NCBI GenBank assembly: GCA_045652405.1
Contig: JAZRUF010000005.1
Span: forward strand, 421 to 64,420
Origin: Eubacteriales bacterium
Lineage (GTDB): Bacteria > Bacillota > Clostridia > Oscillospirales > JAAYXM01
DNA: 64,000 nt
Direction: 5' to 3'
How positions within the stretch are numbered: position 1 is the first letter of the stretch; each line of letters opens with the position of its first letter. This document shows, piece after piece, positions 9,034 to 22,875 of the stretch. Under the pieces are notes generated by a model. It did not search any database, was not told the origin of the DNA, and saw nothing but the letters and a program-made list of their open reading frames with translations. Made by a program: the position numbers and the translations under genes.

Positions 9034-9285
9034 CTACACCCCTTTTATACGAGGCACGCATATCCCCTCAGCAAAGGCAGGTACTTTACTCGGCCTATCA
9101 CTTCTTACTTCATCTTCTCTCAGATTTCCGAGCGTCACTTTAAAGCTGACATCCAACTCTTCCACCTGAAGTTTTGACAGGCTGTCCGCCATAGAAATCA
9201 TATCACGTATATCCGCTTCAAGCTTCAGGGCATCGTCAAGCTCAAGGTATGCAAGTTCTGCCGAGTGCTTTAATACTTCCTTCAT
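9034..9285 (-). CDS. gatC: Asp-tRNA(Asn)/Glu-tRNA(Gln) amidotransferase subunit C
   Basis: 83-aa protein directly upstream of gatA. Size, position and its acidic helical character fit GatC. Confidence 0.75.
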   Translation of the reverse strand: MKEVLKHSAELAYLELDDALKLEADIRDMISMADSLSKLQVEELDVSFKVTLGNLREDEVRSDRPSKVPAFAEGICVPRIKGV

Positions 9286-11412: not shown

Positions 11413-11459
11413 GACTGCAAAGGGTATTGCGCCCAATTTGTGCTGAGAAGGTGGTAGCT

Positions 11460-12173
11460 ATGCACAGCCATATTCGCAAAAAAATTTTAAAAACGCGACC
11501 TAAAGCCCGGAGTAGGCAAAGTACCTCTCGCCCGCTTATAAAGCTTGCAATGCTTTTTATCATCATAATAATTGCTTTGCTGTACATATTCCACGCTCGC
11601 TTTAAGCCCGCAATACGCATATATGCAGAACATCAGGCCCAAAATGCAGTACACCAAATAATAAATTCACAGTTAGAAAAAGCTCTGAGCTCCGGAGGTA
11701 TATCATATCAAAGCTTTGTAAACTTAGAAAAAGACAGTAACGGTCGTATATGCGCTATAACAACTGATATGTCTGCTATGAACACATTTAAAGCACAAGT
11801 TACGGATGCCATTTTAAAAGAAAATGCAGATATGCCGCCATTTGAGTTAAAAATCCCGGCAGGTGTCCTTCTCGGAAACGAATATTTTGCCGGGCACGGC
11901 CCCAATATTCCTATAAAAATACTGCCGTTTTCCTCAATAAAAACCTCATACTCAAACTCATTTACCTCTGCGGGAATAAACCAGACCAGGCATCAAATAA
12001 TGATGAATTTCACAGCATCAGTAAATATGCTTTTTCCGGGTTTTAGCGAAAACATGACCGTCACGACGGATATATGCGTGGCAGAAACCGTAATCGTCGG
12101 TGCTACTCCTCAGTTTTTCGCCGGATTGCAGGATAGAACAACTTTTGCAGATTACAGCTCAATATCTGATTAA
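11460..12173 (+). CDS. yunB: Sporulation protein YunB
   Basis: N-terminal basic region plus TM, then IINSQLEKAL....ISYQSFVNLEKDSNGRI.AITTDM..MN.FK and C-terminal TTDICVAETVIVG, matching the YunB family. The ATG at 11460 follows a GAAGGTGG RBS. Confidence 0.7.
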   Translation: MHSHIRKKILKTRPKARSRQSTSRPLIKLAMLFIIIIIALLYIFHARFKPAIRIYAEHQAQNAVHQIINSQLEKALSSGGISYQSFVNLEKDSNGRICAITTDMSAMNTFKAQVTDAILKENADMPPFELKIPAGVLLGNEYFAGHGPNIPIKILPFSSIKTSYSNSFTSAGINQTRHQIMMNFTASVNMLFPGFSENMTVTTDICVAETVIVGATPQFFAGLQDRTTFADYSSISD

Positions 12174-12224: not shown

Positions 12225-14540
12225 TTAAGACCGTTTAAATAATTCCTCAATTATTCCTGCAACTGACTCCATTGTTCCTTCAGAAAACGGATTCTTAAGT
12301 TCTGCACCTAAGGTAAGTGCTGCCAGACCGAAGCGAACATATTTTGATTCTAAAATGTTCATATACTTCTCAAATGCCAGGTCAAAATTCGTCTTTGAGA
12401 TTTCCCAAATCTGAAGCGAAACCGCACTGGAAAGAGCGTATTCTATCATATAAAACGGAACTTCATAGACATGTGTTGCGTTGCTCCAGACCAACCCCTT
12501 AAGATAAGCTTGGTGCGCGCTCGAAGAATATTTTCCAAAATACTCCTCATCTATTTTTCTGTATAGCTTATTTCGCGCTTCGGGAGACATATTGGGGTTC
12601 TTATAAACCTCTGTCTGAAATTCATCGAGCATGCAACTGTCAATTATCTGGGCAAGGAAATTATAAATCACATATTTTTCCGCATTCTTTGCATTGCCTC
12701 CAAAAAACTCATCATACCTCTTTGCAAGCAAAAGCTCCATCGCGGTTGATGCGGTTTCCGCTACATCCAGCGGGATGTTATCCGTCGGGTTCTTTCCGTA
12801 CCAACGGAAATTCTGGAACACGTGACCGAATTCATGCGAAAACGTGCTTAAACCCTCATATCCGCCCTCACCTTTTATATACATGAACGGCATTTCATAT
12901 TGGTTAAAATACACGGTAAATGCCCCGGGCGATTTATTTTCTCTGTTATCTGAATCTATCATATCGTATTTTACGATATAATCAATTGCCTGTCGCGTCT
13001 GCGGGGACAAGTCTCTCATGACTTCTTTTATTATTTCTATATAATTGGTATTGTCACCAAGAAACGACATATCCGGAAATTCATATTCATTTTCCTCAAT
13101 ATCCGGATAAATCATAGCATACTGAGCGTGGCGAATATCATTGTAGAGCGGCACTAAGTATTTTTTTACGTCATCACGAAATGCACGGATGTTATCTTCG
13201 TAATATCCATATGCCGCATCATAGTAGTTAGCGCAATTATAATATTTGGCTATTTCAGTACGCACTTTAACAAGCTTATCGAAAATACTGTTAAAGACGC
13301 TTTCTTTCTCTACGTAGTAATCAAGCCCCAACTGTCTGAGTTCAGCCTTCTCCGAATACATAGCCTGGTAAAGAGAGTATTTACTACCTTCAAATGAAAT
13401 AGACGGCGAATTATACAAATCGCTAAACTCACTTACATACTCGGTTTCTCGGTTGAACAAGTCTAAAATTTTCTGCTCCATAGGTGCTGACGGCGGGAGT
13501 AAATTTTCAAATTTAATCCCGATTTTTTCGCAGACCGCGTCTCTGTCCGGTGCGGATTTAAGGGCATTATACTGAGCGATATATATTTCCGTCAGTGCTT
13601 TTTGCGCCTGTGGGATTTTTGCATACTCAGCCTTGTACTCAGCACTTGTTACATCGCGCTTTACATTTATGCTTGCCATGGTTACAGCCGTGTTTATTCC
13701 CAACTGAAGCTTTGTAAGCTCACTGAAAATTTCTGCTTTGCGTTTTGTATCTGCACTATTGAATTCTGAAATCAGAGCATCCTTTTGTGCAATAAGGTCG
13801 GTTTTGGCAAGCGAAGGATATGAAATATCCGAAAACTTTACACCTTTGCGGTTCGGTGCAATCTCAAGTGCAGTTGACGATGCTGCCGCCATTATCTCGA
13901 AATACGCCCAATGTGATGCCTTCAGGTCAGAAAATTTCTGTTTTTCTACCTGAATTTTAACATCCATTCCCACTGCTTTATTTATCATTTTCACGGCTTC
14001 AGCGCGTGTTAGATACGAGTTTGGTCGGAAAGTGCCGTCCCCATATCCGCCGATAAACTTCTTTTCCGAAAGAGCAGCTATACTGCCCTCAGCCCAGTGT
14101 CCGCTGATATCCTTGAAAGCCTTGGTCTTTTTCCCTGCAACATTTATTTTCATTGCACGTGCAACTATGGTTGCAAACTCAGCTCGTGTAAGACCCCTGT
14201 TCGGTTTAAAAACATTTCCTGCATATCCGTTTATTATCCCGGCATCACTTAGCGTGGAAATCGCACTGTATCCCCAAAAGCTCTGCGGAACATCGGAAAA
14301 GCTTTTCCCGCTCTGCCCTTTTAATTGCAAATCAAGAACGTAGTAGAGCATCTTCGCACCCTGGGCACGTGTGAGTACACTGTCCGGGCGAACCGTTCCG
14401 TCCTCGAATCCGTTTATATATCTAAAATAATTTCTGTCACTGTCCTGCCTGAAGCCGACACCTGCCGCATTTGCGCCAAGTGACATCAGCATGGAAAGAA
14501 TCACCGCAACAGCAGTTATCCTCTTTAAATTTCCTCTCAT
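12225..14540 (-). CDS. Secreted SLH-domain-anchored M3B (PepF-like) oligoendopeptidase
   Basis: Signal peptide (ITAVAVILSMLMSLGANA). Three to four SLH repeats follow (F.DV....W....I......GII.GY..G.F.PN..LTRAE). The C-terminal catalytic region carries HEFGH (12822-12836) and a downstream DVAETAST glutamate ligand, as in the M3B PepF family. A GGAG RBS precedes the ATG. Confidence 0.75.
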   Translation of the reverse strand: MRGNLKRITAVAVILSMLMSLGANAAGVGFRQDSDRNYFRYINGFEDGTVRPDSVLTRAQGAKMLYYVLDLQLKGQSGKSFSDVPQSFWGYSAISTLSDAGIINGYAGNVFKPNRGLTRAEFATIVARAMKINVAGKKTKAFKDISGHWAEGSIAALSEKKFIGGYGDGTFRPNSYLTRAEAVKMINKAVGMDVKIQVEKQKFSDLKASHWAYFEIMAAASSTALEIAPNRKGVKFSDISYPSLAKTDLIAQKDALISEFNSADTKRKAEIFSELTKLQLGINTAVTMASINVKRDVTSAEYKAEYAKIPQAQKALTEIYIAQYNALKSAPDRDAVCEKIGIKFENLLPPSAPMEQKILDLFNRETEYVSEFSDLYNSPSISFEGSKYSLYQAMYSEKAELRQLGLDYYVEKESVFNSIFDKLVKVRTEIAKYYNCANYYDAAYGYYEDNIRAFRDDVKKYLVPLYNDIRHAQYAMIYPDIEENEYEFPDMSFLGDNTNYIEIIKEVMRDLSPQTRQAIDYIVKYDMIDSDNRENKSPGAFTVYFNQYEMPFMYIKGEGGYEGLSTFSHEFGHVFQNFRWYGKNPTDNIPLDVAETASTAMELLLAKRYDEFFGGNAKNAEKYVIYNFLAQIIDSCMLDEFQTEVYKNPNMSPEARNKLYRKIDEEYFGKYSSSAHQAYLKGLVWSNATHVYEVPFYMIEYALSSAVSLQIWEISKTNFDLAFEKYMNILESKYVRFGLAALTLGAELKNPFSEGTMESVAGIIEELFKRS

Positions 14541-17085: not shown

Positions 17086-17130
17086 ATGCCACTCAGTCAA
17101 ACTTTTAGACTGGGCGGCATTTTTGTTGTT
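17086..17130 (+). terminator. Rho-independent terminator after the EIIC_2-family gene
   Basis: 13-bp stem, 17086-17098 pairing with 17108-17120 (one mismatch, one G-U), followed by TTTTGTTGTT. Confidence 0.7.
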
Positions 17131-17195: not shown

Positions 17196-17204
17196 TGCTA
17201 TAAT
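17196..17204 (+). promoter_or_regulatory. Extended -10 element (TGcTATAAT) upstream of the efflux operon
   Basis: TG at 17196-17197 and TATAAT at 17199-17204, 32 nt upstream of the adaptor ATG. There is no good -35. Confidence 0.35.
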
Positions 17205-17235: not shown

Positions 17236-19071
17236 ATGGAAAATGTACCTGTTGCAGCATTAAAAAGAAAGAAAAAGAAGATTAAATTGATTGTTTTTAT
17301 TCTCCTTGTTTTAGCGGCAATAATTGCGTCAGTATTATTTATGAAAAGGATATTTTCAAGCGAAGATACGAAGCTTATTATCACCCCCTACTCAGTAGAG
17401 CGTGGGGATATAACCACTGTCATAAGCAGCACCGGCACAATAGAGCCTATTGAGCAGTATGATATATCCTCAATTGCACGTGGCGACGTAGTCGCAGATT
17501 ACATAACCGTTGGTCAGCAGGTCAACGAAGGAGACCTGTTATATGAGGTAGACTCTACTGAGGCTCAAAATGATATTGAGAAAGCACGAATTTCTCTTCA
17601 GAAGCAGCAACTTTCATACCAGCAAACGGTTGAGAGTATCGAAAATTTAACTGTTACCGCGCCGATAAACGGTACCATAACAAATATGTACGTATCTAAC
17701 GGTGACAATGTTCAGACAAACGGTAAAATCTGCGACATTGTAAATTCAGTTACAATGTCTATAACACTCCCTTTCCTCATCGAGGATGCGCAAAGCCTAT
17801 ATTCCGGCCAGACGGCTTACATAACTTTGGATACAACTGACGAAACAATTGAGGGCTCTGTAAAGCGAATCGCTACCGGCTCATATTCCACATCTACCGG
17901 CGCTATCGTAGCGGATGTGGAAATCATCTTCCACAACCCGGGCGCGGTTAAAGACGGCGATGTGGCAACAGTCGTTGCCGGCGGCTTTGCTTGTAACCAA
18001 GCCGGAACAATAAAATACGGTGACCAAATAACTGTCGTCGCAAAAACCTCCGGTGAGGTCAGCAACCTGACATTAGGCGCAGGTGACGCGGTGGACGCAA
18101 ATGAGGTTATTTTAAAGCTAATAAATACCTCATCAAACACAAATGCACGTTCAAGCGAGCTTTCCATACGCGATGCGGAATTGGCACTTGATAACAAAAT
18201 AGAAGCTCTTGATGAATATATGATAACCTCTCCCATCACCGGAACTGTCATAGACAAAACCGCAAAACTCGGAGATGCCCTTGACGGAAACAAGAGCGCA
18301 ATGGCTATCGTCGCTGATATGTCAAAGGTAACTTTTACAATGAGCATTGATGAGCTTGATATCAAAAATATATCCGTAGGTCAGGAAGTAATTGTAACCG
18401 CAGATGCACTTCCCGACCAAAGTTTCACCGGTTATGTTAGCAATGTTAGCATTATCGGAACGACCGGCAGCGGTGTTACAACTTATCCGGTAGATGTAAT
18501 CATTGAGGAATATGAAGGGCTTCTCCCCGGCATGAATGTAAATGCGGATATTATTTCCGAACAGGCAACCGACGTATTAAAAATCCCGGTCAATGCAGTT
18601 TCGCGCGGTAATTTGGTACTGGTTACCGAAGAGTATGCAAAAAACATTGGCGCAGTGAAGATGGAAATACCAAGGCGCGACAACAAAAAGTCCGATAAAG
18701 ATAAATCAAGCGACACGCCTGAGCGTCCGTCAGATGATATACCTGAGTCCCCGAACGCACATAATACAGACACTGTTCAAATTATAGAAATGCCGAACAC
18801 TCCGGATGGACACGTATGGATTCGCGTAAGTATAGGAAAATCCAATGAGGATTACGTGGAGGTAACCTCTGGACTCACTGAGGATGCCGAGGTATTCGTA
18901 ATCTCCACCAAGCAGGCAAAAGAAGCTTCCTCAAATACTGGAGGCGGTATGGCTGCAATCGCGAATGCTCACTCCTCCGGCATGGGCAACATGCGTCCCG
19001 GTGGTATGGGAGGCATAGGCGGTATGCCTTCAGGAGGCATGGGCGGTATATCCGGAGGCGGTATGAGATGA
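17236..19071 (+). CDS. HlyD/MacA/YknX-type membrane fusion (periplasmic adaptor) protein with Gly/Met-rich C-terminal tail
   Basis: GGAGG RBS. N-terminal TM, biotinyl-lipoyl-like hairpin flanks (PIEQYDISS.ARGDV......GQ.V..GDLL and VTAPINGTIT......GD.V) and a coiled-coil segment. The C-terminal beta-barrel region is followed by a charged linker and a GGM-rich tail. Confidence 0.8.
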   Translation: MENVPVAALKRKKKKIKLIVFILLVLAAIIASVLFMKRIFSSEDTKLIITPYSVERGDITTVISSTGTIEPIEQYDISSIARGDVVADYITVGQQVNEGDLLYEVDSTEAQNDIEKARISLQKQQLSYQQTVESIENLTVTAPINGTITNMYVSNGDNVQTNGKICDIVNSVTMSITLPFLIEDAQSLYSGQTAYITLDTTDETIEGSVKRIATGSYSTSTGAIVADVEIIFHNPGAVKDGDVATVVAGGFACNQAGTIKYGDQITVVAKTSGEVSNLTLGAGDAVDANEVILKLINTSSNTNARSSELSIRDAELALDNKIEALDEYMITSPITGTVIDKTAKLGDALDGNKSAMAIVADMSKVTFTMSIDELDIKNISVGQEVIVTADALPDQSFTGYVSNVSIIGTTGSGVTTYPVDVIIEEYEGLLPGMNVNADIISEQATDVLKIPVNAVSRGNLVLVTEEYAKNIGAVKMEIPRRDNKKSDKDKSSDTPERPSDDIPESPNAHNTDTVQIIEMPNTPDGHVWIRVSIGKSNEDYVEVTSGLTEDAEVFVISTKQAKEASSNTGGGMAAIANAHSSGMGNMRPGGMGGIGGMPSGGMGGISGGGMR

Positions 19072-19769
19072 TAGAATTCCGAGACATATATAAAATTTAC
19101 AACGAAGGCGAAGGCGAAAATGAAGTCCGTGCGGTAGACGGCGTATCGTTTACCATAGAAAAGGGCGAATTTGTCGCAATAGTCGGAAAGTCCGGCTCGG
19201 GAAAGTCCACATGCATGAATATAATAGGTGCGCTTGACGTGCCTACCTACGGTACATATCTTTTAAACGGCGAAAACGTTGGCGAGCTTTCAGACAACCA
19301 GCTTGCGGAAATTCGCAACAAAATGCTCGGCTTTATTTTCCAGCAATACAACCTTATTCCCAAATTAAACGTATTGGAAAATGTGGAGCTTCCGCTGATA
19401 TATTCAGGTCTCGCCGCAGACGAGAGAATAAAGCGCGCGTTGGAGTCCCTTGAACGCGTTGGACTTAAAGACCGTGCACATCACATGCCGAGCCAGCTTT
19501 CAGGCGGTCAGCAGCAGCGCGTTTCAATCGCGCGTGCACTTGCGGGCAATCCGTCCGTAATCCTTGCAGACGAGCCTACCGGCGCTTTAGATTCCAAGAC
19601 CGGGCGCGATGTACTCAACTTCTTAAAAGAACTGAATAACCAAGGCAACACAATTGTTCTTATAACGCACGATAACGGCATCGCATCGGAAGCCAAACGC
19701 ATTATTCGCATTCAGGACGGAAAGGTCGTCTATGACGGGCCTGCTGAGCAGGCGGGGTTACACATATGA
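19068..19769 (+). CDS. MacB/YknY-type ABC transporter ATP-binding protein
   Basis: Walker A GKSGSGKST, signature LSGGQQQRVSIARAL, Walker B ILADEPT. Its ATG overlaps the adaptor stop (ATGA). Confidence 0.9.
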   Translation: MIEFRDIYKIYNEGEGENEVRAVDGVSFTIEKGEFVAIVGKSGSGKSTCMNIIGALDVPTYGTYLLNGENVGELSDNQLAEIRNKMLGFIFQQYNLIPKLNVLENVELPLIYSGLAADERIKRALESLERVGLKDRAHHMPSQLSGGQQQRVSIARALAGNPSVILADEPTGALDSKTGRDVLNFLKELNNQGNTIVLITHDNGIASEAKRIIRIQDGKVVYDGPAEQAGLHI

Positions 19770-20941
19770 AATTCACTCAAGCATTCCGCCTTGCTTTAAA
19801 GAGCATGTCTGCAAGCAAAATGAGAGCCTTTCTTACGATGCTTGGCATAATAATAGGTGTTGCCGCGGTAATTATGCTTACAAGCATAGTGGGCGGTTTC
19901 TCAAACACTATGACTGATTCATTCGAGTCACTTGGAACAAATCTTATAACTGTTACCCTCAGAGGACGCGCAGGTAATATTCCGATAGACCCTGACGATG
20001 TATTTGATTTCTGCTCCGAAAACAGAGACCTTATAAGCTATGTTTCACCGTCGGTAACCTCAAGTGTTCTTGCCAAATACGGCTCAACGAATCTTACCAC
20101 GACCGCATACGGCGTAAGCGAAGATTACCAGCAAATAAAAAGCTATGAGCTTTCAAGTGGCAGATTTATAAGCTATATGGACACGGTTTCCAGGAGCAAG
20201 GTGTGTGTTATCGGCTCATATATTGCAAATGAATTATTTGCGGGAGCATCACCCATAGGAAAGGACATAAAAGTAAACGGCGAGGGGCATACAATTGTCG
20301 GCGTGCTTTCTGAAAAGCAAGGCAGTTCCGAGGGCTCAGGGGATGACATGATAATAATTCCCTACACTTCTGCCACGCGCCTTACGCGCAACGGAATAAT
20401 TACAAGCTACTCAATAAACGCGCGTGATAAAAGTAACGTCGCAGCTACGCTCGCCGCTATAGAAGATTATCTGTTTTCTGTATTTGAGGACGAGGATGTA
20501 TATTCGGTGTTCAGCATGGATGAAGCACTTGATAAAATAAATGAGCTGACCGGCATGCTCACTATGGTGCTCGTAGGTATTGCCGCCATTTCCCTGCTCG
20601 TCGGCGGTATCGGCATTATGAACATCATGCTCGTTTCAGTAACCGAGCGCACACGTGAAATCGGTATACGCAAGGCACTTGGTGGCAAGCGCCGCGATAT
20701 TCTACTGCAGTTTATAATCGAAGCCGCCACTACAAGCGGTCTCGGTGGTGTTATGGGGATAATCTTTGGCTGTGTATGCGCTTTCTTTTTAGCAAAGTTA
20801 ATAGGCATAAGTGCGGCTTTCTCTCCCGGTTCAATCGGGGTTGCATTTTCAGTATCCGTAATTATAGGAATAACGTTCGGCTACTTCCCCGCAGCTAAAG
20901 CAGCAAAACTAAATCCAATCGAAGCCCTGCGCTACGACTAA
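19766..20941 (+). CDS. MacB/YknZ-type ABC transporter permease (MacB_PCD plus FtsX domain)
   Basis: TM1, then a large extracytoplasmic domain, then three C-terminal TM helices with ..ERTREIGIRKALG and a terminal AKLNPIEALRYD. It overlaps the ATPase stop by 4 nt. Confidence 0.85.
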   Translation: MKFTQAFRLALKSMSASKMRAFLTMLGIIIGVAAVIMLTSIVGGFSNTMTDSFESLGTNLITVTLRGRAGNIPIDPDDVFDFCSENRDLISYVSPSVTSSVLAKYGSTNLTTTAYGVSEDYQQIKSYELSSGRFISYMDTVSRSKVCVIGSYIANELFAGASPIGKDIKVNGEGHTIVGVLSEKQGSSEGSGDDMIIIPYTSATRLTRNGIITSYSINARDKSNVAATLAAIEDYLFSVFEDEDVYSVFSMDEALDKINELTGMLTMVLVGIAAISLLVGGIGIMNIMLVSVTERTREIGIRKALGGKRRDILLQFIIEAATTSGLGGVMGIIFGCVCAFFLAKLIGISAAFSPGSIGVAFSVSVIIGITFGYFPAAKAAKLNPIEALRYD

Positions 20942-20982
20942 TTAAATTTGCACCGGTAATATAACAGAAAGGGTTGATTAAA

Positions 20983-22875
20983 GTGAAAAAGAGAATTTTT
21001 TCATTGTTTCTTGCAGTTGCAATGATGCTCTCAATTGCGCCGACTTCATCTGCTGCACTTGCACCGGACCATGATGAGATTTTTAAAATTCTGAATGTTT
21101 TAGGTTGGATGACTCCCAATGCACAGGGTAATTTCTACGGTTCTACAGATGTAACACGTGCAGCTCTTGCAAAAATCATTATTACAAGCTCATCCACATA
21201 TCGTGCAACGGTTTCCACTACTCAAAAAACTTCTCCTTTTAAGGATGTTAAATACACATTCTGGGGCGCTCCGTACATAAGCGCTGTCGCTCAAGCCGGA
21301 CTCATGTACGGCTACTCGGACGGCAGCTTTCGCCCAAACAAAGGTGTTCTTTACGAAGAAGCCGTGACCGCTATTCTCCGCGTATTGGGATATGGTGACA
21401 GTGACTACATTGGAAGCTACCCTACCGGTCAGCTTGCCTTTGCAAACGACTTAGAGCTTACAGATGGGATAAGCGCAACGCGCGGACAAATCATATCACG
21501 TTATGATATGTCACGCCTTTTGTATAATGCACTGTCTGTTCCCGCAAAGACGAGTGGCGGTAAAATTTACGCAGAGACCTTAGGTTATAGCCGCTCAACT
21601 GAAATGCTAAGACTTAATGACTTTGTTAAGGACACGGTAAACGGACCTGTCACCTACTTAAATACCTCGATTGAAAGCCTTACAGGTCTTTCTAATCCGA
21701 CTGTGTATATAAACGGAAGCAACAGTACATTAAGCGCAATCAAAGCATACGACGTTATTTATTACAGCAAACAGAGTAATACAATCTGGGTATACACGCA
21801 AAAGGCTACCGGCATACTTGAAGCAATTACACCGAATAAGGAATCCCCCTCTTCCGTAATAATCGGCGGTAAGACATATTCACTTGATTATTCAAAAGCC
21901 AGAACCGCATTCGGGTTGGACGGCTTAGAAACCGGAACGCTTGTAACCGCGCTTTTGGATAAGGACGGAAAGATTTACGACGCTTATGAGGCAGATAAGC
22001 TCTACTCTACTCAACTTGGTATAGTAACTAAGGCGGATACAAAGCAAGTAACACTAAGTGGTGGAATAGTAGAAACGCGTTATTACATAACAGTTCTTCT
22101 GATAAATGGAAATGAGGTTGAAATTGAGCGCGACACAAACTCATCCTCTATGCTCGGAAAGGCGGTTGAAATAAACTACCGCGACGGCAGTGTCACCCCA
22201 CACAATTATTCATCCTTGTCAGCACTTTCCTCCATATCCGGAACAATTAATTCAGAAACTCTCCTTTGGGGCACAAAAACAATACTTTCAAAAGATATAA
22301 AGATACTTGAGATTGACGAATACGGAAACTATACTACGCTAACCTTAAACCGACTTAACGGTGTGTATTTGAAAGGCTCACAAGTCGCCCTATATTCAAA
22401 AAACTCTACCGGAGCCATTGACGGTCTTATCCTTAAAAACGTATGCGGAGACACAGCCGAATTCGGTCACGTTACATCTTCAAACGTTGTAAGCAGCGGC
22501 GGCATGCCGGTAGGGATAAATTATACGTACACGCTCACAACCGGTTCAGGCTCTGGCACGATAGCAGAAATGCTCCCAAGCGCAGATAAAGGTCCTGCCG
22601 CATTCTATTTTAAAAATGGGCAATTGCAGGAAATCCGAAATTTAACACGTATATCCGGTAGGATAAATACATTAAATTACTCATATCTCGAAACCTCCAC
22701 CGGCGCAAAACACCGCATCTCCCCCTCAGTTATCGTTTATAAAGTTGTTTCAGGGACAAGGACACTCACAACAATAGACGAAGCAGTATCCGGAAACTGG
22801 AGTTTAGCCGCATACTATGATGAAGTTCAAAATGACGGCGGTATGGTACGAATGATTTACATTGAGTCAAAATAA
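20983..22875 (+). CDS. SLH-domain cell-wall-anchored protein with unassigned about 430-aa C-terminal region
   Basis: Signal peptide (IFSLFLAVAMMLSIAPTSSA) and SLH repeats (FKDV...FWGAPYISAVAQAGLMYGYSDGSFRPN..VLYEEAVTAILRVLGY). The remainder has no motif I recognise. The GTG at 20983 is 9 nt after GAAAGGG. The track start, TTG at 20974, abuts the RBS. Confidence 0.7.
   Translation: MKKRIFSLFLAVAMMLSIAPTSSAALAPDHDEIFKILNVLGWMTPNAQGNFYGSTDVTRAALAKIIITSSSTYRATVSTTQKTSPFKDVKYTFWGAPYISAVAQAGLMYGYSDGSFRPNKGVLYEEAVTAILRVLGYGDSDYIGSYPTGQLAFANDLELTDGISATRGQIISRYDMSRLLYNALSVPAKTSGGKIYAETLGYSRSTEMLRLNDFVKDTVNGPVTYLNTSIESLTGLSNPTVYINGSNSTLSAIKAYDVIYYSKQSNTIWVYTQKATGILEAITPNKESPSSVIIGGKTYSLDYSKARTAFGLDGLETGTLVTALLDKDGKIYDAYEADKLYSTQLGIVTKADTKQVTLSGGIVETRYYITVLLINGNEVEIERDTNSSSMLGKAVEINYRDGSVTPHNYSSLSALSSISGTINSETLLWGTKTILSKDIKILEIDEYGNYTTLTLNRLNGVYLKGSQVALYSKNSTGAIDGLILKNVCGDTAEFGHVTSSNVVSSGGMPVGINYTYTLTTGSGSGTIAEMLPSADKGPAAFYFKNGQLQEIRNLTRISGRINTLNYSYLETSTGAKHRISPSVIVYKVVSGTRTLTTIDEAVSGNWSLAAYYDEVQNDGGMVRMIYIESK

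Follow-up and report, generated by a model that had tools for sequence, protein, structure and literature searches.

The role of the adaptors that accompany MacB-type pumps in Gram-positive bacteria has been an open question since 2000 and is regarded as unresolved (PMC5985334). What do these adaptors connect to? A concrete and testable candidate, a wall-anchored protein encoded together with the pump, is offered by an operon family that we analysed starting from a 64,000-nucleotide stretch of an Eubacteriales bacterium (assembly GCA_045652405.1, contig JAZRUF010000005.1, positions 421 to 64,420), called the window below. Here, genes for an adaptor, an ABC ATPase and a MacB-type permease are directly followed by a gene for a secreted protein that carries S-layer homology (SLH) repeats and, behind them, a C-terminal region of 412 aa without any known domain. 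The four-gene linkage turned out to be translationally coupled and near-universal in related genomes. We tentatively favour the view that the SLH protein serves the pump as a dedicated partner on the wall side, and give this view slightly less than an even chance of being right.

The unit and its boundaries are composed as follows (genes according to the open reading frame (ORF) list).

17086..17126, + strand: upstream intrinsic terminator, which ends the gene for the EIIC component of a phosphotransferase system; 5' boundary of the four-gene unit
17196..17204, + strand: candidate extended -10 promoter element TGcTATAAT, 32 nt 5' of the adaptor start codon
17236..19071, + strand: gene for the adaptor of HlyD/membrane fusion protein (MFP) type, 611 aa
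19068..19769, + strand: ABC ATPase gene, 233 aa
19766..20941, + strand: MacB-type permease gene, 391 aa
20942..20982, + strand: permease-SLH spacer of 41 nt, containing the ribosome-binding site AAAGGG (20968-20973)
20974/20983..22875, + strand: SLH protein gene, 633/630 aa
22881..22931, no strand assigned: downstream terminator hairpin, shared by the SLH gene with the convergent rpoC; closes the unit on its 3' side

An earlier, sequence-only reading of this DNA had described four co-oriented genes joined by two ATGA overlaps, a short hairpin-free gap before the last gene and terminators on both sides, and each of these elements was found again. The adaptor stop overlaps the ATPase start at 19068, and the ATPase stop the permease start at 19766, as can be read in the sequence. 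The SLH gene most likely starts at GTG 20983, because the N-termini of its homologues read MKK..., a product of 630 aa is on record and AAAGGG lies 9 nt upstream; with this start, the distance to the permease gene is 41 nt. The gap region folds with only -3.7 kcal/mol (z = +1.9), giving no hairpin, and no + strand promoter-like site was detected in the gap by a promoter scan, so that no sign of an independent promoter for the SLH gene was found there. The upstream terminator consists of a stem (17086-17120) followed by UUUUU (-17.8 kcal/mol, z = -2.8); the downstream one (-31.5 kcal/mol, z = -11.8) has an A-run on one side of its stem and a U-run on the other, and its position between the SLH gene and the convergent rpoC makes it presumably bidirectional. 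Both were missed by a simple terminator scan, probably on account of a 9-nt loop in the former and an internal mismatch in the latter, and the total of that scan equalled chance expectation (11 found, 10 expected). A terminator-like hairpin with a T-rich run behind it, inside the permease coding sequence 100 nt before the stop (20824-20840, + strand), is weak (-7.8 kcal/mol, z = -0.9) and was set aside as probably due to chance. The element TGcTATAAT was not called by the promoter scan because it lacks a good -35 element, and is a plausible promoter of the unit. To judge by this layout, the four genes probably form one transcription unit.

We considered the possibility that an unrelated wall protein had merely come to lie on the pump transcript, a view that can point to the abundance of SLH proteins in the genome, one of which, an SLH-anchored peptidase M3, is encoded 6 kb away. 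The neighbourhoods of homologues, a survey of which the sequence-only reading had proposed, speak against it. When the C-terminal module by itself was searched against GTDB, each species being represented by one genome, 41 loci came to light in Oscillospiraceae, Eubacteriales, Congzhengia, Intestinibacillus and other Clostridia metagenome-assembled genomes (MAGs), and the pump genes at these loci were located by tblastn with the window proteins. Most carriers are MAGs, some of which are affected by problems of assembly or binning (L022; L050, which bears the label Acidobacteria). In 33 loci, adaptor, ATPase, permease and SLH genes follow each other in the same order and on the same strand, the upstream parts being cut only by contig ends; in 5 the permease (and ATPase) gene is present up to the contig end, 2 are without upstream DNA, and 1, L022, has no intact pump. 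The permease gene was thus directly upstream on the same strand in 38 of the 39 evaluable loci. Even at L022, the last 31 permease codons (9121-9213, 90% identical) stand directly before the SLH gene, as a remnant of either a deletion or a chimeric MAG assembly, and we therefore rejected this locus as an instance of an independent SLH gene. Further loci retrieved by protein identity showed the same arrangement without exception (9/9), with spacers too short, or genes overlapping, so that no room is left for a promoter. Combined, the SLH gene comes directly after the permease gene in 47 of 48 evaluable loci, and the loss of linkage that would have spoken for an unrelated gene was not observed.

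The spacer between the two genes at homologous loci is mostly 11-30 nt, or is replaced by an overlap of 4-20 nt. Neither a drop in identity to 28% nor an unrelated genomic context breaks the linkage: synteny of rpoC, EIIC, AI-2E and the SLH-M3 peptidase is limited to a relative with 92% identity, and a 59% relative has the four genes in wholly different surroundings. Larger family members (831-1306 aa, four loci) also stand directly after a MacB_PCD/FtsX permease. The reciprocal test gave the same picture, as each of three adaptors of 38-42% identity, chosen blind to SLH, turned out to precede an ATPase, a permease and a member of the family. When ORFs were clustered across loci, each of the four operon genes recurred in 32-39 of them; an antisense ORF within the permease gene formed the one further widespread cluster (25 loci), the next real gene family reaches 13 loci, and no conserved fifth gene (regulator, bacteriocin, TolC or YknW-like) emerged. 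This conservation of order, strand and translational coupling across contexts indicates a dedicated functional partner and removes the reading as an independent gene. As every family member seen had at least a pump-gene remnant, and the association held in both search directions, coincidental co-transcription appears effectively refuted by conservation, and we give it next to no credence.

As a side observation on the survey, L050 (GCA_035560415.1, labelled Candidatus Acidoferrum sp.) is syntenic gene for gene with the Firmicute-type contig L049, the shared order being secA, the four-gene operon, dCMP deaminase, MarR and an ABC exporter; the label of L050 is probably a binning or taxonomy error.

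The identity of the pump core was assessed with Pfam and NCBIfam, and the results agree with the combination of HlyD-type adaptor, MacB-type ATPase and FtsX-type permease proposed earlier. The adaptor matches HlyD_3 and HlyD_D23 in Pfam, in two stretches each, and TIGR01730 RND_mfp in NCBIfam (score 133.5, cutoff 94.9). The ATPase matches ABC_tran (E = 6e-35) and, in NCBIfam, best the nucleotide-binding domain region of MacB (3.7e-82), DarD and LolD, with scores under the equivalog cutoffs, which indicates membership at the family level and not orthology; its motifs are intact in the translation (Walker A, GKSGSGKST; signature, LSGGQQQR; Walker B, ILADEPT). The permease shows MacB_PCD at aa 22-234 (5e-46) and FtsX at aa 272-384 (3e-20), with a large extracytoplasmic MacB core domain between the first and second transmembrane (TM) helices and an FtsX-type TM bundle at the C-terminus. 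Its PDB sequence matches are MacB (5gko, 5e-62, full-length) and Spr0695 (5xu1, 1.5e-38). Since all three features that define membership were found, the three core genes are classified, on these domain matches, as a MacB-type (type VII ABC) transporter with an MFP adaptor. PADLOC gave no match for the adaptor and the SLH protein and only generic ABC and LolE_TM matches for ATPase and permease; in the absence of a specific match, an anti-phage defence system was rejected.

The adaptor is unusual in its length of ~600 aa, its internal duplication and its tail of Gly, Met, Pro and Ser. An N-terminal TM helix (about aa 17-36, read as a hydrophobic helix in the sequence) anchors it in the membrane and is followed by a tandemly duplicated hairpin/lipoyl/beta-barrel unit, a membrane-proximal domain and the Gly/Met-rich C-terminal tail.

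17584-17874 and 18154-18450, + strand: duplicated units of the adaptor, aa 117-213 and 307-405
18928-19068, + strand: low-complexity tail of the adaptor, aa ~565-611

The two units, each with a short hairpin, one half of the lipoyl barrel-sandwich hybrid (BSH) and a beta-barrel, align with each other by BLASTP at E = 1e-6, and related adaptors have at least two BSH matches each in Pfam. The hairpin segments are only ~30 aa long. The closest solved relatives are MacA and Spr0693 (5xu0, 6e-9). One may speculate that a trimer of such duplicated chains could mimic the usual adaptor hexamer. The tail, 40-50 aa with GGMP/SGGM-type repeats behind the membrane-proximal domain, was kept in 32 of 32 homologues, nearly all ending in GGMR and a few in GGR, GGQ or similar; we take it to resemble the GGM tail of GroEL.

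The SLH protein consists of a signal peptide, a wall anchor and the C-terminal region, which was divided into modules M1 to M6 according to the secondary structure of an AlphaFold2 (AF2) model.

20983..21054, + strand: Sec-type signal peptide, MKKRIFSLFLAVAMMLSIAPTSSA, predicted cleavage before ALAP
21070..21597, + strand: triple SLH domain, aa ~30-205 (Pfam and Foldseek)
21637..22005, + strand: modules M1-M2, the 'stalk', aa ~219-341
22006..22875, + strand: modules M3-M6, the 'head', aa ~342-630, single-copy and C-terminal

The n-h-c pattern of the signal peptide, the single hydrophobic segment of the protein and confined to its N-terminus, is kept across the family alignment, and the predicted local distance difference test (pLDDT) score of the AF2 model is below 50 for residues 1-26. 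Neither a lipobox cysteine nor a C-terminal signal of the type I secretion system (T1SS) kind was found in the sequence. In the anchor, Pfam detects one SLH repeat only (aa 85-127, 2e-11). Foldseek with the full-length AF2 model aligned 161-172 columns to SLH domains of ~165 residues, with E down to 3e-7 and target-normalised TM-scores of 0.66-0.80; the targets were Paenibacillus alvei SpaA (7sv5, 6cwc) and Bacillus anthracis Sap (3pyw, 6bt4). As the alignment spans all three repeats, the domain is identified as a triple SLH domain. Compared with ligand-binding motifs of the TRAE type, its first repeat keeps TRA(A) with the invariant Arg R59, and the second and third are degenerate (LYEE, SRYD).

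These features bear on the idea that the SLH protein is a client of the pump. After its export by Sec, pump and adaptor would move, insert or position it in the thick wall, in analogy to the extraction of lipoproteins by LolCDE or to the secretion of S-layer proteins by ABC plus MFP type I systems in Gram-negatives. Substrates are often encoded beside dedicated exporters, peptidoglycan crossing is a real problem for a protein of this size (65-140 kDa across the family), and MacB-family machines act on extracytoplasmic substrates (PMC5985334). Yet the known MacB substrates do not exceed ~10 kDa (PMC5985334), and the ABC protein is of the MacB and not of the HlyB type. The SLH protein has a Sec signal of its own and shows neither of the two other signals searched for. 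Moreover, the last place in a coupled operon implies low, stoichiometric expression, unlike that of S-layer proteins. We therefore regard a role as client as improbable. The sequence-only reading had left open whether the protein is partner or cargo; on this point, the evidence favours a partner, without settling the matter.

The C-terminal region (residues 219-630, 412 aa) was modelled by AF2 with a pLDDT of 89 and a predicted TM-score of 0.79, and is described as all-beta, with about six small beta modules in a defined packing; helices are also present in the array. That no domain can be recognised in the last ~430 aa, as stated in the sequence-only reading, was upheld by every search, and a match to some well-known unrelated domain, which would have told against that reading, did not turn up. 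Pfam and NCBIfam gave no significant match, including Pfam scans of all 12 alignment members at E <= 1; PDB sequence profiles gave nothing better than E = 0.09; and Foldseek returned nothing at E <= 1e-3 from PDB and two matches below 1e-3 from BFVD, both of low probability and with a TM-score of about 0.1. Sporadic weak resemblances to small beta-barrels concerned HIN, CSD, EF-P, S1, FlgD-Tudor, the MreC barrel and, below threshold, DUF4384, and the weak structural matches of the head in Foldseek PDB and BFVD are tandem small barrels of OB/SH3-like type. No porin or outer-membrane-protein barrel was returned by Foldseek PDB for the C-terminal model. The same reading had suggested repeated beta modules, which is right in part: the small modules are seen in the AF2 model, and ~120 aa are repeated in tandem in longer homologues, but the modules of the window protein show no significant repetition in sequence, the best probability in an all-versus-all hhalign comparison of the six being 22%. 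The invariant residues in the family alignment are mostly Gly, Tyr, Pro, Leu, Asp and Arg, and no catalytic-looking constellation is found among them.

The absence of such a constellation is relevant to another explanation, in which nothing is transported and an ATP-driven conformational change, passed on by the adaptor, switches an activity of the SLH protein, e.g. in remodelling or scaffolding. The wall hydrolases PcsB, CwlO, EnvC and RipC are under the control of FtsEX, which belongs to the same ABC superfamily (PMC5985334). In FtsEX, too, a type VII ABC machine acts together with a wall-associated protein outside the cytoplasm, and the SLH protein is likewise located in the wall. However, FtsEX systems work without an MFP adaptor, which is present here. 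Their effectors are hydrolases or activators with coiled coils, encoded elsewhere, and neither a coiled coil nor a catalytic domain or hydrolase match was seen in the SLH protein by Pfam, alignment, AF2 or Foldseek PDB. The permease is also far closer to MacB (see the 5gko match above) than to FtsX models. FtsEX-like regulation therefore seems rather unlikely to us.

A profile of the C-terminal region retrieved 1280 cluster representatives (50% identity level) at E <= 1e-3, of which 535 at E <= 1e-30. The proteins range from 600 to 1300 aa and come from gut and rumen Clostridia (Oscillospiraceae, Congzhengia, Intestinibacillus and relatives). The module occupies the C-terminus in nearly all of the 150 matches listed; all seven full-length representatives examined start with SLH, and three short, fragment-like sequences (403-510 aa) had no Pfam match. 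Long members carry tandem repeats of the first ~120 aa of the module (positions 1-120 of the hidden Markov model, M1-M2), with 3 extra copies in L045 (1511-4663) and 4-5 in L042 (8001-11921), and the last ~290 aa (M3-M6) are single-copy, which suggests an architecture of SLH anchor, extendable stalk and head. The stalk is the part of the SLH protein that evolves most slowly (p-distance 0.48).

The family data also bear on the main competing explanation, that the SLH protein is a wall-anchored capture or sink module, i.e. a binding protein that could serve as decoy or receptor, with antimicrobial peptides, bacteriocins or something else as ligand. Such a module would cooperate functionally with the pump by giving or taking substrates, and would not be a structural part of the channel. 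The linkage evidence applies to it equally. The head evolves fast, the number of stalk repeats varies as it does in surface display proteins, the SLH protein has many conserved Tyr and Trp residues, and Gram-positive MacB-type pumps are typically peptide-resistance systems (PMC5985334). On the other hand, a known binding domain was not detected by Pfam or Foldseek, no bacteriocin or regulator gene is conserved near the loci according to ORF clustering, and tight translational coupling suggests a stoichiometric assembly. We hold this explanation to be unlikely, though it deserves to be taken seriously.

We return to the reading that we favour, a partnership of SLH protein and pump on the wall side. 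The unit would encode a four-component MacB-type envelope machine of a monoderm, spore-forming Clostridium of the gut. The YknY-like ATPase and the YknZ-like permease, which has four TM helices, would convert ATP hydrolysis into movements outside the membrane (mechanotransmission), and the membrane-anchored, duplicated short-hairpin adaptor would ring the permease domain and extend outward. The SLH protein, exported by Sec, would be fixed by its triple SLH domain to a wall polymer, presumably a pyruvylated secondary cell-wall polymer (SCWP), with stalk and head acting as the wall-side partner. Physical contact with adaptor or permease and the orientation of the head are inferred. Our proposal is that the SLH protein attaches the adaptor assembly to the wall and either completes the exit path or guards it. 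It would then occupy the place of TolC in diderms and not that of Bacillus YknW. By analogy with YknXYZ, Spr0693-0695 and AS-48FGH, the transported substrates are probably membrane-active peptides or other amphiphiles. In its strongest form, this reading makes the SLH protein the monoderm counterpart of the outer-membrane factor (OMF), an SCWP-anchored exit or docking component that touches the tip of the duplicated adaptor ring; this we consider possible but doubtful.

The tight coupling, the wall anchoring and an adaptor extended by duplication without a TolC-docking hairpin argue, indirectly, for a structural partner. Between the four proteins, distance matrices correlate with r = 0.89-0.97. 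With the ATPase signal removed, the correlation is 0.60 between head and adaptor core, compared with 0.64 between the adaptor and the permease periplasmic domain, a known contact, and 0.24 between the head and the permease TM part; this co-divergence of head and adaptor lends weak support to a partnership.

Several points weigh against a partnership of the kind just described. Fast evolution common to the extracytoplasmic parts can by itself produce the partial correlations. No other part of the system evolves as fast as the head (p-distance 0.62, compared with 0.49 for the adaptor), and such a rate suits a module that faces outward and is exposed to the environment no less than it suits a docking surface. 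The stalk is present in 1 to 5 copies, and adaptor length does not change accordingly (Spearman 0.12, p = 0.52, n = 30); a scaling of adaptor length with the length of the SLH protein was rejected on this result, and the independence of the two argues against a simple stack of fixed geometry. Finally, a conserved operon position is also known for the substrates of some export systems.

The genomic setting is that of an endospore-forming Firmicute, as indicated by the presence of yunB, and housekeeping genes (ligA, gatAB, rpoBC, fhs, tkt) surround the operon. Two neighbouring genes were recorded.

11427..12173, + strand: sporulation gene yunB (Pfam Spore_YunB, 8e-30)
12225..14540, - strand: second SLH-anchored protein, SLH repeats followed by an oligoendopeptidase F-like peptidase M3 with HEFGH, upstream of the operon

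Synteny of the latter gene is restricted, as mentioned, to the closest relative.

The MacB-type core has been described before. What appears to be new is the attached SLH protein domain family, which is undescribed, absent from Pfam and NCBIfam and without a solved relative; a full-text search of the literature gave no description of an SLH-anchored protein as a conserved component of MacB-type pumps. The recurrence of the four-gene unit in about fifty related genomes suggests a dedicated wall partner for such Gram-positive pumps. Should this partnership prove physical, the usual picture of Gram-positive efflux and peptide-resistance machines would have to be revised, the new domain family would gain a function, and a surface-exposed, pump-specific protein would provide a handle on abundant uncultured gut anaerobes. 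If the protein is indeed the counterpart of the OMF, the MacB-type pump would become a membrane-to-wall assembly spanning the whole envelope in Gram-positive Clostridia, monoderm adaptors would have a structural purpose, and a new fold family would be dedicated to that role. Should it turn out to be a capture module or a client instead, it would still represent a new accessory class for type VII ABC systems.

Comparison with known systems places the SLH protein apart from other SLH-anchored surface proteins (Sap, SpaA, cellulosome anchors; OmpM of diderm Firmicutes). It shares with them the N-terminal triple SLH fold behind a Sec signal, but its C-terminal module is no S-layer crystallisation domain, enzyme, cohesin or porin barrel, and its gene lies inside a pump operon, whereas theirs stand alone. 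The C-terminal transmembrane beta-barrel that characterises the OmpM/SLH-porin tethers is likewise missing.

Among the pumps, the resemblance to MacAB and Bacillus YknXYZ, with YknW as an unrelated accessory, had been pointed out in the sequence-only reading and agrees with the MacB review (PMC5985334). Bacillus YknWXYZ, the SDP-resistance pump, is also from a monoderm Firmicute and has a transporter split into YknY and YknZ (with MacB core domain), a membrane-anchored MFP, YknX, which binds peptidoglycan, and a fourth co-transcribed accessory gene (PMC5985334). However, YknW is a polytopic membrane protein encoded first in its operon, in contrast to the secreted, SLH-anchored beta protein of 630 aa encoded last here, and no YknW-like accessory is present in the operon. 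The adaptor of the window, moreover, is ~230 aa longer, duplicated, and equipped with short hairpins and a Gly/Met tail.

Streptococcus pneumoniae Spr0693-0694-0695 (5xu0, 5xu1) has the same three core parts in a Gram-positive and gives significant sequence matches; its adaptor Spr0693 was proposed to form a channel across a periplasm-like zone (PMC5985334). It differs in having three components only, without a wall-anchored partner, and a single, unduplicated adaptor core. MacAB-TolC of Escherichia coli and Acinetobacter baumannii is the system to whose MacB the permease and the ATPase are closest, and it has the same succession of transporter, adaptor and a third component in the outer layer. 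No TolC/OMF-like gene was found in the operon or conserved in flanks of up to 10 kb, the related taxa are monoderm, and the adaptor lacks the long alpha-hairpin that docks TolC. The outer component of the present system is, instead of a membrane barrel, a protein bound to the wall via SLH.

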